Shown: in pieces, positions 12,691 to 47,464 of the stretch | Position numbering within the stretch: the stretch's first letter is position 1 | How the letters are laid out: every line of letters begins with the position of its first letter | NCBI GenBank assembly: GCA_964016885.1 | Contig: OZ024759.1 | Coordinates: forward strand, 19,840,001 to 19,904,000 | Length of the DNA stretch: 64,000 nt | Reading direction: 5' to 3' | DNA from: Eledone cirrhosa | Taxonomy: Eukaryota | Notes under the pieces: model-generated | The model's database searches: none | The model's input: the letters and a program-made list of their open reading frames with translations, nothing else | Told to the model about the DNA's origin: nothing | Made by a program: the position numbers and the translations under genes

Positions 12691-12790
12691 TATATATACA
12701 CACATGCACATGCACACACACAGAACTATATATATATACATACACACACATACATACATATGTATATATTTACATGTTCATATTTTTCAG

Positions 12791-13131
12791 TGTCATTCTG
12801 GGATGAGAATTGGTTCATCAAGGAAGGATTTGATACCAAATCGGAGAAAATGAAGGAGGCTCTGCTGTTAGATATGATTGACCTCCACCCAAATGTTCGG
12901 TGCTCTGCCATTTTTAAAGCTGCCAGCATCGGTATTCTGTACCTAGCCTCTGCCGTTCACCAACAGCACGACAATATAAAATGTGCTGGGGATGGGTCAC
13001 AAAACCCTCCTGCTGCATGTTTACCCAGCAACATACTTGAAGCTTTACAATGTATTTTGGCTGATCCGAATGAGGATGTGAAAATATCTGCAGCTCTCAC
13101 CTTATTTTGCCTTCATCAAGGAAATGAAACG
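12791..13131 (+). CDS. Internal coding exon (341 bp) of a HEAT-repeat protein, HEATR4-like
   Basis: Acceptor TATTTTTCAG|, donor ACG|GTAAGA, open frame. Complex peptide WDENWFIK...DMIDLHPNVRCSAI...LPSNILEALQCILADPNEDVKISAALTLFCL has HEAT pattern L..D....V+..AA. The HEATR4 resemblance is from recall and unverified. Confidence 0.75.
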
Positions 13132-20220: not shown

Positions 20221-22740
20221 TTAACCCTTTCCTTACTATATTTCTAATAGAAGTAATCAAGAATTTGAAGGGATTTAGTAATATAACTTTCTCATTATTA
20301 AACAAAACCCGCTGAGGTTAACTTTGCCTTTCCTCTTTACGGGATCGATAAAATAAAGTACCAGTAATACACTGGGTAATTGCTGGCCTTGTGCCAAAAG
20401 TAGAAACAATGATTAAACTGGTCTTTGGAACATAACATAACAAAGGTTTTAACATAAAATTATGATGGTAAGGTTTTAAATAAATATAAACATGTTAAAC
20501 AACTTTATCATGTAGAACCAGGGTTTGAACCAGGGTTTGAACCAGGGTTTGAACCAGGGTTTGAACCAGGGTTTGAACCAGGGTTTGAACCAGGGTTTGA
20601 ACCAGGGTTTGAACCAGGGTTTGAACCAGGGTTTGAACCAGGGTTTGAACCAGGGTTTGAACCAGGGTTTGAACCAGGGTTTGAACCAGGGTTTGAACCA
20701 GGGTTTGAACCAGGGTTTGAACCAGAGTTTGAACCAGGGTTTGAACCAGGGTTTGAACCAGGGTTTGAACCAGGGTTTGAACCAGGGTTTGAACCAGAGT
20801 TTGAACCAGGGTTTGAACCAGAGTTTGAACCAGGGTTTGAACCAGGGTTTGAACCAGAGTTTGAACCAGGGTTTGAACCAGGGTTTGAACCAGGGTTTGA
20901 ACCAGGGTTTGAACCAGGGTTTGAACCAGGGTTTGAACCAGGGTTTGAACCAGAGTTTGAACCAGGGTTTGAACCAGGGTTTGAACCAGGGTTTGAACCA
21001 GGGTTTGAACCAGGGTTTGAACCAGGGTTTGAACCAGGGTTTGAACCAGGGTTTGAACCAGGGTTTGAACCAGGGTTTGAACCAGGGTTTGAACCAGGGT
21101 TTGAACCAGGGTTTGAACCAGGGTTTGAACCAGGGTTTGAACCAGGGTTTGAACCAGGGTTTGAACCAGGGTTTGAACCAGGGATTGAACCAGGGTTTGA
21201 ACCAGGGTTTGAACCAGGGTTTGAACCAGGGTTTGAACCAGGGTTTGCACCAGGGTTTGCACCAGGGTTTGCACCAGGGTTTGAACCAGAGTTTGAACCA
21301 GAGTTTGAACCAGGGTTTGAACCAGGGTTTGAACCAGGGTTTGAACCAGGGTTTGAACCAGGGTTTGAACCAGGGTTTGAACCAGGGTTTGAACCAGGGT
21401 TTGAACCATGGTTTGAACCATGGTTTGAACCAGGGTTTGAACCAGGGTTTGAACCAGGGTTTGAACCAGGGTTTGAACCAGGATTTGAACCAGGGTTTGA
21501 ACCAGGGTTTGAACCAGGGTTTGAACCAGGGTTTGCACCAGGGTTTGAACCAGAGTTTGAACCAGGGTTTGAACCAGAGTTTGAACCAGGGTTTGAACCA
21601 GAGTTTGAACCAGAGTTTGAACCAGAGTTTGAACCAGAGTTTGAACCAGGGTTTGAACCAGGGTTTGAACCAGGGTTTGAACCAGGGTTTGAACCAGAGT
21701 TTGAACCAGGGTTTGCACCAGGGTTTGAACCAGAGTTTGAACCAGGGTTTGAACCAGAGTTTGAACCAGGGTTTGAACCAGGGTTTGAACCAGGGTTTGA
21801 ACCAGGGTTTGAACCAGGGTTTGAACCAGGGTTTGAACCAGAGTTTGAACCAGGGTTTGAACCAGAGATTGAACCAGAGTTTGAACCAGGGTTTGAACCA
21901 GAGTTTGAACCAGGGTTTGAACCAGGGTTTGAACCAGGGTTTGAACCAGGGTTTGAACCAGGGTTTGAACCAGGGTTTGAACCAGGGTTTGAACCAGGGT
22001 TTGAACCAGGGTTTGAACCAGGATTTGAACCAGGGTTTGAACCAGGGTTTGAACCAGGGTTTGAACCAGGGTTTGAACCAGGGTTTGAACCAGGGTTTGA
22101 ACCAGGGTTTGAACCAGGGTTTGAACCAGAGTTTGAACCAGGGTTTGAACCAGAGTTTGAACCAGGGTTTGAACCAGGGTTTGAACCAGGGTTTGAACCA
22201 GGGTTTGCACCAGGGTTTGCACCAGGGTTTGAACCAGAGTTTGAACCAGGGTTTGAACCAGGGTTTGAACCAGGGTTTGAACCAGGGTTTGAACCAGGGT
22301 TTGCACCAGAGTTTGCACCAGGGTTTGAACCAGGGTTTGAACCAGGGTTTGAACCAGGGTTTGAACCAGGGTTTGAACCAGGGTTTGAACCAGGGTTTGA
22401 ACCAGGGTTTGAACCAGGGTTTGAACCAGGGTTTGAACCAGGGTTTGAACCAGGGTTTGAACCAGGGTTTGAACCAGGGTTTGAACCAGGGTTTGAACCA
22501 GGGTTTGCACCAGGGTTTGCACCAGGGTTTGAACCAGGGTTTGCACCAGGGTTTGAACCAAGGTTTGCACCAGGGTTTGCACCAGGGTTTGCACCAGGGT
22601 TTGAACCAGGGTTTGAACCAGGGTTTGAACCAGGGTTTGCACCAGGGTTTGAACCAGAGTTTGCACCAGAGTTTGCACCAGGGTTTGAACCAGGGTTTGA
22701 ACCAGGGTTTGAACCAAGCAATTTGGTAACAAAAGAGTTA
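20221..22740 (+). mobile_element. piggyBac-like MITE containing a SINE fragment (20304-20414) and the 12-bp array
   Basis: Left end TTAACCCTTTCCTTAC; right end GGTAACAAAAGAGTTAA (degenerate inverted match). Confidence 0.55.
20515..22717. repeat. 12-bp minisatellite (GAACCAGGGTTT)n, about 183 copies
   Basis: Direct inspection; variants GCACCA and CAGAGT. Confidence 0.98.
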
Positions 22741-38071: not shown

Positions 38072-38270
38072 GTAAAACTTAAACAGAAATAACAGCACAA
38101 TCGGTACAGTATATGGAAGGAATATATTAGTTTAACGCTTGAAATAGCAGGAAGAGGGTTTTAACGTTTCGGACGCCAGTCCTTCATCAGAAGAAAGAAT
38201 GATAAATAAGATAGATTGAAGGGACGGGCGGGGTGGAATTGGAAAAATGTCTTTAGATAAAAATAACAGG
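38072..38270 (-). mobile_element. H5 element with minimal hammerhead core (truncated copy at 29258-29351)
   Basis: Minus strand CTGATGA-A-GGAC-TGGC-GTCC-GAAACGTT at 38190-38163; palindromic AACGTT; weak stem I. Confidence 0.6.
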
Positions 38271-39184: not shown

Positions 39185-39463
39185 ATAATTACAACAGTGA
39201 CATAAACAGGTACTCAAGTTTCGTTGGGCTCTGGTCCCCAATTTGACAGGCTGAATGAATTGGGGCCCAGAACCCAATGAAACTTGAGTACCTGTTTATG
39301 TCACTGTTGTAATTATCAAAGAAGAAAGACATACCACGTATGCTAACCAACCTGACTGCTATTTCTAGCAGGCTGGGAATCAACCATAAGAGATTCTCTC
39401 TCGAGTTCGTTGTCAGTGATGATCGTGTTTCGCGGCCTATGTCTCAGATTCCAACGGTGGTTT
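39185..39463 (+). mobile_element. Foldback element with hammerhead 3' half
   Basis: 39185-39316 palindrome; right arm has GAAAC-TTGA-GTA directly after a long imperfect hairpin. Confidence 0.65.
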
Positions 39464-39885: not shown

Positions 39886-40162
39886 GTGCCACAACATCCA
39901 GGCCGAAACTAATGAGATCGTGAAGGTGTCACGACAAAAAAACACACAGTCCACGCTGTAATGTGGCCGTGTAGGTAACACAGTAAAAACCTCCCAGTCC
40001 CACACTGTAAATGTGGTTGGTGTTAGGAAGGGCATCCAACTGTAGAAAACCTGCCAGACAGTCCTATGCGAGCAAGACAACCACTCTTGCCTCAAGTGGG
40101 AAAACTCCCGTCCAAACCCATGCAAGCGTGGAACATGGACGTTAAACGATGATGATGATGAT
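39880..40162 (+). mobile_element. SINE family B 3' half
   Basis: AGGAAGGGCATCC, tail, (GAT)n; tail also at 38696-38810. Confidence 0.85.
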
Positions 40163-40164
40163 AT

Positions 40165-40368
40165 ATAAGGGATAAAATCGTTTGACAAGAGACTTTGATT
40201 CTCCATCATAAATTTCTGCTTATATATATATATATGTAAGGAATAAAATCGTTTGACAAGAGACTTTGATTCTCCATCATAAATTTCTGTTTATATATAT
40301 ATATATATATATGTGTAAGGAATAAAATCGTTTGACAAGAGACTTTGATTCTCCATCATAAATTTCTG

Positions 40369-40402
<34 letters not shown>

Positions 40403-40520
40403 AGGAATAAAATCGTTTGACAAGAGACTTTGATTCTCCATCATAAATTTCTGTTTATATATATATATATATATATAAGGAGTAAAATCGGTTGACAAGA
40501 GACTTTGATTCCCCATAAAT
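40165..40520 (+). repeat. Five copies of a ~55-bp unit separated by variable (TA)n (another at 39752)
   Basis: TAAGGAATAAAATCGTTTGACAAGAGACTTTGATTCTCCATCATAAATTTCTG. Confidence 0.9.
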
Positions 40521-40734
40521 ATATATATATATAAATATATGTATGTATATATATATATATATATATACAGAAATTTATGGGGAATCAAAGTCTTTTGTCA
40601 ACTGATTTTATTCCTTACAAGTTGTTTCATCTGATTAGGTTATGGTTGTATACTCACAGATGGGATTAAATATGATCTGTATGCATCCATAGGTTTCTAT
40701 TCAGAATCCTCAGAGGAAAGTTAGTTGTTTATAA

Positions 40735-40923: not shown

Positions 40924-41171
40924 AGTTGTTTATAATAATGTCACAAAAAATAAGTATGACCGTACAATTCATTTTGATTAAGTCATCTAACACAATATAA
41001 TATCCTCCCCTCTGAATTTAGGATATATTTCATTTTTGATATATATCAACAGTCGATTGACTTTGAAATCGGACCGAGGAAAGAATGTTTCCATTGGTCT
41101 TTCCAATTGCTAATACTATCTATTGGTTGCAAATCCAGGTAGAATTTGATAATATATATATATATATATAT

Positions 41172-41400
41172 TCGAGAGAAGACTACGTTGGTATGGTCAC
41201 GTGATGCACATGACAGACGACAGCTGTATAAAAAAGTGCAGGGCGATAAAATTAGACGGTAGCCACGGAGTAGGCAGACCCAGAAAAACCTGGGACGACT
41301 TGATAAATTCCGACCTTACACCTCTCCAAGACAATGTCACTGGACCGAGATCTTTGGCGCTACACAGTAATACAGAAGACCCACCTTGCCTAAGTACAAA
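41172..41400 (+). mobile_element. RTE LINE 3' fragment, frameshifted
   Basis: [12 protein letters not shown]...CIKKC...GRPRKTW. Confidence 0.8.
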
Positions 41401-41452
41401 GCGAAACCTACAGTCAGTAGGCACCTCTAACAAAAATACTCCCCTCTATTAT

Positions 41453-41850
41453 GGAGGCACATGGCTTAGTGGTTAGGGCATTGACCTTGCAATCGAAAGG
41501 TTGTGAGTTCAATTCTCAGACCGGGTGATGTGTTGTTTCCTTGAGCAAGACACTTTATTTCACATTGCTCCAGTTTACTCAGCTGTAGAAATGAGATGAT
41601 AGGGACTGGGGTCCCTATCATTCCACTGCTAAGTGGTCGTGGAGGTGCCACAGCAAAAAAGCACCCAGCACTCACTGTAAAGTGGTCGTGGAGGTGCCAC
41701 AGCAAAAAGGCACCCAGCACTCACTGTAAATGAGGTTGGTGTTAGGAAGGGCATCCAGCTGTAGAAATCAAGCCAGAATCAGTTCCCGTCCCACCCTTGC
41801 AAGGAGGGAAAAGCGAACGTAAAATGATGATGATGATGAATGATGATGAT
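41453..41850 (+). mobile_element. SINE family B, full length (tRNA head, CORE-like domain, RTE tail)
   Basis: A-box TGGCTTAGTGG; B-box GAGTTCAATTC; CCTTGAGCAAGACACTT...CTCCAGTTTACTCAGCTGTAGAAATG resembles the MIR/CORE domain; tail matches 27736-27787. Confidence 0.9.
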
Positions 41851-41884
41851 ATAAAAGTATGTTATCAAACACTATTATTTATAT

Positions 41885-41943
41885 CATAATTTAATCTACA
41901 ATTGTTTCATCCTCTTGGGACTCATCAGAATTAACCATTATAT
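41885..41943 (-). ncRNA. Minimal type I hammerhead ribozyme, complete
   Basis: Minus strand TTAATT-CTGATGA-GTCC-CAAGA-GGAT-GAAAC-AATT-GTA-GATTAA; stems I, II and III pair; cleavage triplet GUA; palindromic ACAATTGT. Confidence 0.85.
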
Positions 41944-42278
41944 AAATAATTAACTCAACAAGTTCATCTTTTCAAATGCACAAATAGTCCGTAGAATGTT
42001 TTGTTTACATTTTAAAAAAACAGCATAGTCATACTAAGAGATATTACTTAACACATGCAGCATGACAGTTAATTCACACTGGCACTCACTGTGAATAGTT
42101 ATACTTATTTCCATGGTGTATGTTGTGTAATTGTAAACTGTCCAGATGAGATTTAATCATAGAAGCTCTCACCTGTATAAATTTTAGTAATGTATTTTGG
42201 TGATATATTGATTGGAAGGTTTTTTTCACTGTTGATTCTCTGCTACCTGGCCTCTATCTGTGTGTATATATATATGTA

Positions 42279-42321
<43 letters not shown>

Positions 42322-42343
42322 CTGTATATATATATATATATAT

Positions 42344-42511
42344 ATAGGAACGAGTAGGACCCCGACGGCTAATTCCAGAATTAGCCGTCGAAACGGCTTG
42401 AGCTCAGCCGTCGGGGTCCTACTCGTTCCTATTACTCACTCTACTACCTTAAGTATTGAGTACTTTGGTGCGTTATGGTCCACCTGGTTCCTTACCACAT
42501 TTCCTTCGTTA
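42344..42511 (+). mobile_element. Foldback element family H4
   Basis: ATAGGAACGAGTAGGACCCCGACGGCT inverted against AGCCGTCGGGGTCCTACTCGTTCCTAT; flanked by (TA)n. Confidence 0.75.
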
Positions 42512-43525: not shown

Positions 43526-44114
43526 TATTCTAATATTTTCTTTTTTTTGTTTTTGTTTTAATTTGGGAATCCCAGAATTTTGTTATCTTTATTTTAGTTT
43601 TTTTTATATTGTTTTATTTTATTTTATTTTATTTTATTTATTTATTTTTTAATTTTTTATTTTATTTTATTTTTTTGTTTTGTTTTTATTTTTTTTATTA
43701 TTTTGTTTTATTTTAGTTTTTTCTTTCTCTCTTTTGAAATCATTTAATGCTTTAGAAAACTTCTTAATGGTTTGTATGTTTTAAAAATAAACGAGAATTT
43801 TGGATATAACACAAGATTTTCAATACAGCACCTAATTCTGGAAATAAATGAGACTTCGAAAATATCCTGATATTTATTTTGGAAATGTCGAGATTTTTTT
43901 TTGTTTGTTTTTTGTTTTTGCTTTTTGTTGTTGTTTTTTTGTGGGTGGAGGTGGGGGTGAGTATTATCTCGGTAGTTAAGAGATTTCCAGAATGTTTCTG
44001 TCTTTAAAAATAATGAGAAATTTGCACGTAAAATAAGATTTTGGGAAATAACATGCTGTATCAGATCAGAGACTTTGAAAATAATTCCGTGCTTCGGAAG
44101 TTTTATCAAGGAAA

Positions 44115-46895
44115 GGAAAGGAGCTGATTGTCAGCTCAGACTAGAGAATCTATATTTTCACTGGTCTTTCTATTGCTGATACTATTTGTCAGTCACAATT
44201 CCTGGTATAAGGAAGGAGCTGATTGTCAGATCAGACCAAGGAAACAATGTTTCCATTGGTCTTTCTATAGCTGATACTATCTGTCAGTCACAATTCCTGG
44301 TATAAGGAAGGAGCTGATTGTCAGATCAGACCAAGGAAACAATGTTTCCATTGGTCTTTCTATAGCTGATACTATCTGTCAGTCACAATTCCTGGTATAA
44401 GGAAGGAGCTGATTGTCAGATCAGACCAAGGAAACAATGTTTCCATTGGTTTTTCTATAGCTGATACTATCTGTCAGTCACAATTCCTGGTATAAGGAAG
44501 GAGCTGATTGTCAGATCAGACCAAGGAAACAATGTTTCCATTGGTCTTTCTATAGCTGATACTATCTGTCAGTCACAATTCCTGGTATAAGGAAGGAGCT
44601 GATTGTCAGATCAGACCAAGGAAACAATGTTTCCATTGGTCTTTCTATAGCTGATACTATCTGTCAGTCACAATTCCTGGTATAAGGAAGGAGCTGATTG
44701 TCAGATCAGACCAAGGAAACAATGTTTCCATTGGTTTTTCTATAGCTGATACTATCTGTCAGTCACAATTCCTGGTATAAGGAAGGAGCTGATTGTCAGA
44801 TCAGACCAAGGAAACAATGTTTCCATTGGTCTTTCTATAGCTGATACTATCTGTCAGTCACAATTCCTGGTATAAGGAAGGAGCTGATTGTCAGATCAGA
44901 CCAAGGAAACAATGTTTCCATTGGTCTTTCTATAGCTGATACTATCTGTCAGTCACAATTCCTGGTATAAGGAAGGAGCTGATTGTCAGATCAGACCAAG
45001 GAAACAATGTTTCCATTGGTCTTTCTATAGCTGATACTATCTGTCAGTCACAATTCCTGGTATAAGGAAGGAGCTGATTGTCAGATCAGACCAAGGAAAC
45101 AATGTTTCCATTGGTCTTTCTATAGCTGATACTATCTGTCAGTCACAATTCCTGGTATAAGGAAGGAGCTGATTGTCAGATCAGACCAAGGAAACAATGT
45201 TTCCATTGGTTTTTCTATAGCTGATACTATCTGTCAGTCACAATTCCTGGTATAAGGAAGGAGCTGATTGTCAGATCAGACCAAGGAAACAATGTTTCCA
45301 TTGGTCTTTCTATAGCTGATACTATCTGTCAGTCACAATTCCTGGTATAAGGAAGGAGCTGATTGTCAGATAGGATCAAGGAAACAATGTTTCCATTGGT
45401 CTTTCTATAGCTGATACTATCTGTCAGTCACAATTCCTGGTATAAGGAAGGAGCTGATTGTCAGATCAGACCAAGGAAACAATGTTTCCATTGGTCTTTC
45501 TATAGCTGATACTATCTGTCAGTCACAATTCCTGGTATAAGGAAGGAGCTGATTGTCAGATCAGACCAAGGAAACAATGTTCCATTGGTCTTTCTATAGC
45601 TGATACTATCTGTCAGTCACAATTCCTGGTATAAGGAAGGAGCTGATTGTCAGATCAGACCAAGGAAACAATGTTTCCATTGGTCTTTCTATAGCTGATA
45701 CTATCTGTCAGTCACAATTCCTGGTATAAGAAAGCAGCTGATCATTTTATCAGTCTAAGGAAATAATGTTTTCATTAGTCATTCTATTGTTGATATTATC
45801 AATCCCCGGCCACAAGCTCGATGTGTTTTGGTTGATCTCGTTATAAAGAATTTTTCATTACAACAAATTTTTTTTATACCCCGTGAATTTCGTTATAATG
45901 GAATTTCATTGTATAAGAAAGGAGCTGATTGTCAGATAGGATCAAGGAAACAATGTTTCCATTGGTCTTTCTATTGCTGATACTATCTTTCAGTCACAAT
46001 TCCTGGTACAGGTAAACTTCCGTTATAACAAATTTTTTCAGTATAACAACATTTTTTTCAATCCTCGGCCACATGCTCGATGTGTTTAGGTTAATCTCAT
46101 TATAAAGAGTTCTTCGTTATAATGGAATTTCATTGTATAAGACAGGATCTGATTGTGAGACAGTATCAAGGAAACAATATTTCCATTGGTCTTTCTATTG
46201 TTGATATTATCTTTCAGTCACAATTCCTGGTATAAGAAAGGAGATGATTGTCAGATCAGACCAAAGAAACGATGTTTCCACTGGCCTTTCTATTGCTGAT
46301 ATTATCTACTGGTCACAATTCCTGGTATCAGAAAGGAACTGATTGGTAGATCAGACCAAAGAAACAATGTTTCCACTGGCCTTTCTATTGCTGATATTAT
46401 CTACTGGTCACAATTCCTGGTATAAGAAAGGAACTGATTGGTAGATCAGACCAAAGAAACGATGTTTCCACTGGCCTTTCTATTGCTGATATTATCTACT
46501 GGTCACAATTCCTGGTATCAGAAAGGAACTGATTGGTAGATCAGACCAAAGAAACAATGTTTCCACTGGCCTTTCTATTGCTGATATTATCTACTGGTCA
46601 CAATTCCTGGTATAAGAAAGGAGATGATTGTCAGATCAGACCAAAGAAACGATGTTTCCACTGGCCTTTCTATTGCTGATATTATCTACTGGTCACAATT
46701 CCTGGTATCAGAAAGGAACTGATTGGTAGATCAGACCAAAGAAACAATGTTTCCACTGGCCTTTCTAAGGCTGATATTATCTACTGGTCACAATTCCTGG
46801 TATAAGAAAGGAACTGATTGGTAGATCAGACTGAAGAAGCAATGTTTTTATTGGTCTTTCCCTTTCTGATACTATCTACTGGTCACAACTCCTGG
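44115..46895 (+). repeat. 95-bp satellite array, about 26 copies
   Basis: TATAAGGAAG at 44301, 44396 and 44491; two subtypes either side of the MITE interruptions. Confidence 0.95.
46009..46135. mobile_element. Tc1/mariner (pogo/Tigger-like) MITE with TA TSD; partial copy at 45798-45911
   Basis: TA-CAGGTAAACTTCCGTTATAAC ... GTTATAATGGAATTTCATTG-TA. Confidence 0.7.
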
Positions 46896-47464
46896 TACTT
46901 TATTTTATCGACCCTGTAAGGATGAAAGGCAAAGCTAACCCCGGCAGGATTTGAACTCAGAATGTAGAGGGCCATAGCTCTATGCTGCAAAGCATAGTGT
47001 CAGACACTCTATCGATTCTACTGTTAATCCACCACCCTTTAATAATTGTTTCTACTTTTGGCACAAGGCCAGCAATTACCCCAGTGCATTACTGGTATTT
47101 TATTTTATCGACCCCATAAGGATGAAAGGCAAAGCTAACCTCGGCGGGGGAATTTGAACTCAGAACATAAAGGGCCACGATTCTGGCCACAAAGCATAGT
47201 ATCCGACGCTCTACCGATACTGCCAATCCACCACCCTTTAATAATGATTTCTACTATAGACACAAGGCCAGTAATTTGGGGAGAGGGGAAAGTCAATCAA
47301 ATCAAACCCAGTGTATAACTGGTACTTTATTTTATAGACCCCTGTAAGGATGAAAGGCAAAGTTAACCTCGGCGGGATTTGAACTCAGAATGTAAAGTGA
47401 CATAACTATATGACACAAAGCATGGTGTCTGATGTTCTACTGATTCTGCCGATCAGCCACCCTT
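46893..47464 (-). mobile_element. Three head-to-tail SINE family A copies
   Basis: GATTTGAACTCAGAA-type B-box three times; each copy ends CCAC(C)CTT. Confidence 0.85.

Follow-up and report, generated by a model that had tools for sequence, protein, structure and literature searches.

Introduction

Hammerhead ribozymes have already been described in Penelope-like element (PLE) ends, a Hydra element of octopus included, and their role is still debated (PMC8557442, PMC11167929). Among published octopus or cephalopod Penelope hammerheads our search found one relevant report, that of Craig et al. (2021, PMC8557442), which, like most of the published accounts used below, was available in part; what we take from these accounts is limited to those parts. 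The report covers Hydra-1_Obim of Octopus bimaculoides, a member of the Hydra clade of C-terminal EN+ PLEs. Elements of this clade have a hammerhead of type I close to their 3′ end and insert at (TA)n targets, with 5′ truncation, an inverted upstream copy and a tail; the clade is marked by a CxCX5C motif, by the lack of a CCHH motif and by CxxC/CxH around E and N.

Beyond this clade, metazoan PLE hammerheads have been characterized as type I motifs in pLTRs, mostly single and dispersed, in which the 15.2-16.2 pair and loop 3 form a palindrome, the pair G10.1-C11.1 is highly conserved, and covariation at the level of the family accompanies a proposed action as dimers (Cervera and De la Pena 2014, PMC4209133). 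Their minimal form (min-HHR) has a helix II of 7–8 bp, a helix I of 4–5 bp, an extra base after A9 and little or no helix III (PMC4209133). Metazoan non-LTR retrozymes carry type I hammerheads of canonical size, in which helix III has 2 bp and a tetraloop (PMC7229834; bioRxiv 10.64898/2026.07.22.740005). Finally, the PAc Poseidon element of Anolis has fixed 3′ ends shortly behind its hammerhead, an optional tail and AT-rich targets; its hammerhead cut only with protein present and was dispensable for insertion in vitro (Frangieh et al. 2024, PMC11167929).

Here we analyse a hammerhead motif in a window of 64,000 nucleotides from Eledone cirrhosa (contig OZ024759.1, positions 19,840,001 to 19,904,000). 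We read it as the ribozyme of a Hydra-clade Penelope-like family, left in a short 5′-truncated copy and likely inert where it lies, and give this reading a probability of roughly 0.88.

The hammerhead motif

The letters quoted in the initial annotation were verified at 41942-41885, on the minus strand of the window. Together with a distal extension of helix I the motif occupies 41874..41950 (all features of the motif are on the minus strand), as delimited by its sequence, its predicted fold, a match to Rfam RF00163 of 23.7 bits and pair counts over 63 copies. Judged from its letters, it is a real hammerhead ribozyme motif of type I: the strict signatures (C3UGANGA9, G12AAA15.1, U16.1 and H17) are all present, and the catalytic core from C3 to A9 (41922..41928) is intact, both by sequence and in a core-pattern search. 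Helix I comprises 6 bp (41934-41929 with 41896-41891) and is prolonged beyond an internal loop by a distal stem, predicted by folding, of 11 bp (41950-41940 with 41884-41874). Helix II (41909..41921), supported by fold and pair counts, comprises 4 bp (41921-41918 with 41912-41909), with a 5-nt loop and the closing pair G10.1·U11.1. Next come GAAA (41908-41905) and helix III (41898..41905), whose 2 bp (41905-41904 with 41899-41898) and 4-nt loop make up a perfect 8-nt palindrome: a predicted dimer helix, as pair counts and pattern hits suggest. Cutting is predicted from the sequence to fall after GUA, between 41897 (N17 = A) and 41896 (41896..41897). Two of the pairs at the helix junction are wobbles: 10.1-11.1 is G·U and 2.1-1.1 is U·G.

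The complete minus-strand hammerhead with intact core, the 4-bp stem II and the palindromic stem III of the initial annotation are borne out by these data, its term ‘minimal’ is not: helices of 6, 4 and 2 bp without the extra base distinguish the motif from the min-HHR, and are canonical metazoan sizes by the definitions in the available part of PMC4209133. Canonical size, the 2-bp helix III and the tetraloop are shared with the hammerheads of metazoan non-LTR retrozymes.

The bare core pattern occurs twice in the window, against an expectation of 0.21, and 3 of 100 shuffles reach two. A full descriptor, which asks for the core and for helices I, II and III of 6, 4 and 2 bp, has the hammerhead site as its sole match in the window, and matched in none of 200 simulated windows. 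Over its full length the Rfam model Hammerhead_1 aligns to 41891-41934(-) with 23.7 bits (E = 0.024; gathering score 34); nowhere in the window does an Rfam match attain gathering level.

Further hammerhead-like cores lie at 38190(-), 37096(+), 32433(-), 31316(-) and 12265(-). Similar motifs recur in many of the loci that were fetched, so the cores are probably terminal pieces of three or more further repeat families.

A dispersed repeat with Penelope-type insertion marks

The motif lies in a 247-nt copy (41851..42097, minus strand) of a dispersed repeat, here called family A. The copy was delimited by similarity to the other, dispersed copies, and we interpret it as the 3′ end (pLTR/3′ UTR), truncated on its 5′ side, of a PLE of the Hydra clade. 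A 106-nt query returned at least 46 matches in its own genome (among the best 40 of 180 candidates scored), and full-length matches other than the query itself are 83–92% identical; a 27-nt family pattern has 66 exact matches in the same genome, its reversed control none. The nearest copies are 87–91% identical to the window copy, which is therefore not a fresh insertion.

The ends of family A are distinctive. In 27 of the first 29 other loci similarity stops at the equivalent of 41849-41859, and the 5′ ends of these loci are scattered over the equivalent of 41948-42104. An inverted family-A piece lies directly upstream in 14 of the 29. A tail follows the 3′ end in six by eye (a script flagged eight), and the remaining 3′ ends halt within some 10 nt, for the most part in (TA)n. 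Variable 5′ truncation, an inverted upstream copy and an optional tail are insertion marks of PLEs (PMC8557442, PMC11167929), and all are present in family A; (TA)n insertion, a mark of the Hydra clade, is present at the majority of its 3′ ends. Fixed 3′ ends shortly behind the hammerhead, together with the optional tail and AT-rich targets, also recall the PAc Poseidon element, which belongs to a different clade. In individual copies the sequence behind the hammerhead often folds into a hairpin of 5 bp and a stem in the tail; RNAalifold returned no consensus pair over 22 family-A tails. Motifs of 15 nt from the family are absent from the available supplement text of PMC8557442, where line breaks could hide a match, and family A may already be catalogued in Repbase or Dfam.

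Conservation of structure across family A

Base pairing was analysed over an alignment of 63 distinct family-A copies. All copies were picked out for their similarity to the motif, and nine loci through a pattern demanding an intact core, so that the following figures lean high: 89.0% of cells are paired, against 37–46% in slid controls (helix I 93.5%, helix II 84.5%, helix III 98.4%), and conservation is 0.95 in core columns, 0.89 in stems and 0.85 in the rest (unpaired flanks), with corresponding values of 0.93, 0.86 and 0.82 over 29 copies recruited by non-hammerhead queries.

Changes on both sides of a pair occur in 38 cells, where shuffles give 15.4 ± 5.0; the pairs showing such double changes, four in all, are no more numerous than in shuffles (432/500). 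The covariation signal is carried by two changes. One is at pair 2.4-1.4 of helix I (A-U in 23 copies, G·U in 19, G-C in 12), the other in the middle of the palindrome of helix III (A-U in 43, U-A in 15), and each of them may be a single inherited event. The loop of helix III alternates across the family between two palindromes, and by hand count helix III is palindromic in 62 of 66 pattern matches (39 + 23) with the two centre bases left free. Covariation in helix I and a palindromic helix III fit, as far as sequence can tell, a ribozyme that would have acted as a dimer in the parent element. Family A shares with the PLE hammerheads in the available part of PMC4209133 the type I form in single dispersed copies, the palindrome of 15.2-16.2 and loop 3, and covariation at the level of the family.

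The G10.1-C11.1 pair that is conserved in type I hammerheads, those of PLEs in PMC4209133 included, is lacking in family A: among the 63 copies pair 10.1-11.1 is G·U in 44, A-U in 10 and G-C in none. The pair is usual rather than strict, a natural U-U being on record at that place (PMC3088659). Examined for a tertiary contact of loop 1 with loop 2, the copies yielded no assignment; the internal loop after the sixth pair of helix I is identical on its 3′ side in 46 of the 63, and its 5′ side and loop 2 vary. The description of the motif as ‘textbook’ does not survive these counts, given a family without G-C at 10.1-11.1 and a window copy with a rare G at 1.1 (41896; G in 2 of 63 copies, A in 60).

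At core position 4, 30 of the 63 copies carry C and 29 carry T. Decay of G5 to A is almost confined to the C4 context (6 vs 1), the pattern expected of CpG decay; a variant of the core with C4 was probably present among the parent lineages.

Tracing the parent element

The parent of family A was traced by walking in the 5′ direction through successively longer copies. Some 1.4 kb of untranslated sequence separates the hammerhead end from the end of an ORF upstream. One locus (L148) shows this order: a single contiguous copy in one orientation holds a remnant of a GIY-YIG endonuclease (1211-1530), the UTR, the hammerhead (2947) and a tail. Two further loci (L153 and L154) repeat the order, with weaker 3′ matches.

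The endonuclease remnant has a CxCX5C linker, no CCHH and the series CxxC..E..N..CxH. It reads like the Hydra rows in the supplement alignment of Craig et al., as far as this was available, Hydra-1_Obim included, and Pfam did not recognize the fragment. Its identity to one ORF of the same genome, 713 aa long and with DKT and RWR, is 47%. The reverse transcriptase (RT) marks of the Hydra clade are DKT and RWK; DKT and RWR are found in the related ORF of 713–732 aa, and the region is missing from the family-A remnants. A further locus (L198) has, from the same subfamily, remnants of RT and of the endonuclease, and lacks a hammerhead. RT and hammerhead were never seen together in one family-A copy among the fetched loci, and an intact element (RT, endonuclease and two pLTRs) was not found at the 18 + 2 + 4 fetched stretches, which were the top-scoring candidates. 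The motifs of the endonuclease, by which the clade is assigned, suggest that the parent of family A was a Hydra-clade PLE.

Family A has in common with the Hydra clade the endonuclease motifs, the (TA)n targets, the 5′ truncation, the inverted upstream copy, the tail and, close to the 3′ end, a hammerhead of type I. It differs from Hydra-1_Obim, whose hammerhead has a helix II of 7 bp and a different helix III (PMC8557442), and also in its ∼1.4-kb 3′ UTR and the G·U at 10.1-11.1, as known here from broken copies.

One other locus (L046) was considered as the site of the parent ORF and rejected: the ORF there, a decayed PLE frame upstream of the family-A copy, ends in its own, different hammerhead. 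The ORF family of this locus was likewise rejected as the parent, with family A absent from all 29 further RT-thumb loci and from all 12 extended ones; the locus is a chimera or a nested insertion. The genome also holds two very large PLE families, with open frames of up to 921 and 732 aa and 11,056 and 51,103 first-look candidates; some of these form tandem or inverted pairs (L097, L098, L099, L213, L214).

Family A might instead have spread mainly as a non-autonomous, retrozyme-like RNA, in tandem monomers or circles, with an enzyme borrowed from a PLE. Most family-A copies are indeed short and without an ORF, the helix sizes match those of canonical retrozyme hammerheads, and according to a preprint the retrozymes of animals derive from the pLTRs of PLEs. 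Yet neither the window nor the examined loci contain head-to-tail monomers each with a hammerhead, or an array of fixed monomers: the one same-strand pair of family-A copies, 7 kb apart, is a local duplication without an ORF. Unlike the metazoan non-LTR retrozymes, family A is linked to an endonuclease ORF, into the end of which its long copies continue. We consider spread of this kind improbable.

The window copy in its host locus

An exon of a HEATR4-like host gene lies at 12790..13128 on the plus strand (65–66% identity to HEATR4-like proteins of Octopus), and the following exons at G000:C20:20058066, 20093422 and 20123366 are all on the plus strand. The initial annotation had placed the hammerhead antisense to the HEAT exon. 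It is antisense to the gene and on the opposite strand, but does not overlap the exon: it lies 28.8 kb past it, inside a predicted HEATR4-like intron of ∼205 kb. No credible coding frame was found at 41500-42400. Since the stub is antisense to the host gene, the host pre-mRNA would carry only the complement of the ribozyme.

Here the family-A copy is hemmed in by other repeats. Its 3′ end adjoins an unrelated repeat of high copy number that carries an (ATG)n tail and was recognized by repeat matches (41450..41850, plus strand). On the other side, on the same strand, it adjoins family B, a second repeat of which a truncated end is present (42098..42255, minus strand); other copies of family B have a hammerhead-like motif, the core of which is mutated here. 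At this junction (window 42098-42255(-)), and at one in the chimeric or nested locus (L046:∼617-553(-)), the family-A stub starts ∼5–11 nt behind the predicted cut of the other family, on the same strand, and in both (n = 2) the remainder of the other hammerhead end is missing. The two junctions could have arisen by joining at microhomology, by a switch of template or by targeting of the ends of other PLEs.

At 40161-40650 one repeat end is present several times over, in short copies of either orientation between (TA)n tracts; within this cluster a degenerate hammerhead-like 3′ half lies near 40632(-). Long near-perfect inverted repeats occur at 42345-42432 and 39189-39311, in dispersed repeats beside (TA)n. 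Farther off, an array at 20515-22716 (12-nt unit, 183 copies, 96% identity) contains an open frame of 949 codons and is probably a minisatellite. A weak match to twister-P3 at 41116-41178(+) (25.2 bits, E = 0.073) falls in a piece resembling a 95-nt satellite; it was treated as chance, the similar 95-nt satellite at 44100-46900 having no Rfam match at E ≤ 1.

The window copy is among the 7 of 63 copies in which the core and all 14 pairs are intact, and it is one of the best-preserved copies examined. Predicted folding is less favourable. The 59-nt stretch of the initial annotation folds no better than shuffles (z = −0.42) and is predicted to misfold, with helix probabilities of at most 0.06 and the active form 6.5 kcal/mol above the minimum. 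In an 83-nt form with the distal stem (41952-41870(-)) helix II is kept (0.9) and helix I partly so (0.1–0.3), with a gap of 4.2 kcal/mol; with 60–300 nt of upstream sequence the active fold lies 12–14 kcal/mol above the predicted minimum. For the palindrome a duplex of 8 bp and −6.4 kcal/mol is predicted, and no second family-A hammerhead that might serve as a partner was found within the 114 kb examined.

A comparison is offered by a hammerhead of axolotl in which helix III has 2 bp and the base of helix II is weak: according to the available part of PMC7229834 its monomer cleaved 22%, and its dimer cleaved better. Because so comparable a hammerhead cleaved as a monomer, the window copy could cut if transcribed, and by analogy cleavage in vitro is plausible. 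A role at the present locus is unlikely; the copy is likely inert in place.

Preservation could also be taken to mean domestication: a monomer-competent copy that, within a self-cleaving antisense RNA in the HEATR4-like intron, tunes the host gene. The intact core and 14 of 14 pairs, shared by just 7 of 63 copies, would fit, and conserved intronic hammerheads are known in amniotes (PMC6155905), of which a domesticated copy would, if real, be the invertebrate counterpart. Against this, the window copy is merely less diverged from the family majority than most (7.4%, median 11.1%), its G at 1.1 is weakening, its active fold is far above the predicted minimum once upstream sequence is included, and it is without a partner in 114 kb. 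Domestication is in our judgement very improbable.

Discussion

Taken together, these analyses favour the reading of the hammerhead as that of a Hydra-clade Penelope-like family, surviving in a short truncated copy. That it should be a chance match in AT-rich DNA, as the Rfam score below gathering and the 59-nt fold (z = −0.42) might suggest, is scarcely credible, with the full descriptor in 0 of 200 simulations and a structure preserved family-wide with compensatory changes.

In the parent element the hammerhead would have stood near the 3′ end of an untranslated or pLTR region of ∼1.4 kb, behind an RT-endonuclease ORF; the link to that ORF is shown for its endonuclease end and presumed for RT. 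Covariation within the family, together with published work on PLEs and retrozymes, suggests that tandem copies of the element would give transcripts with two motifs, and that their palindromic helices III would base-pair with each other into a double hammerhead that cuts after GUA. From the shared ends and published work, reverse transcription would start internally, ∼45 nt 3′ of the cut, at AT-rich DNA; to judge by the same ends it would usually halt early and leave stubs like the window copy, which is solitary, without an ORF and antisense to the host pre-mRNA.

The window hammerhead by itself matters little. The natural variation of family A (two palindromes in helix III, and the change from A-U to G-C in helix I) lends modest support, from sequence, to the dimer model for hammerheads of PLEs, and its copies offer matched constructs for a test of that model.
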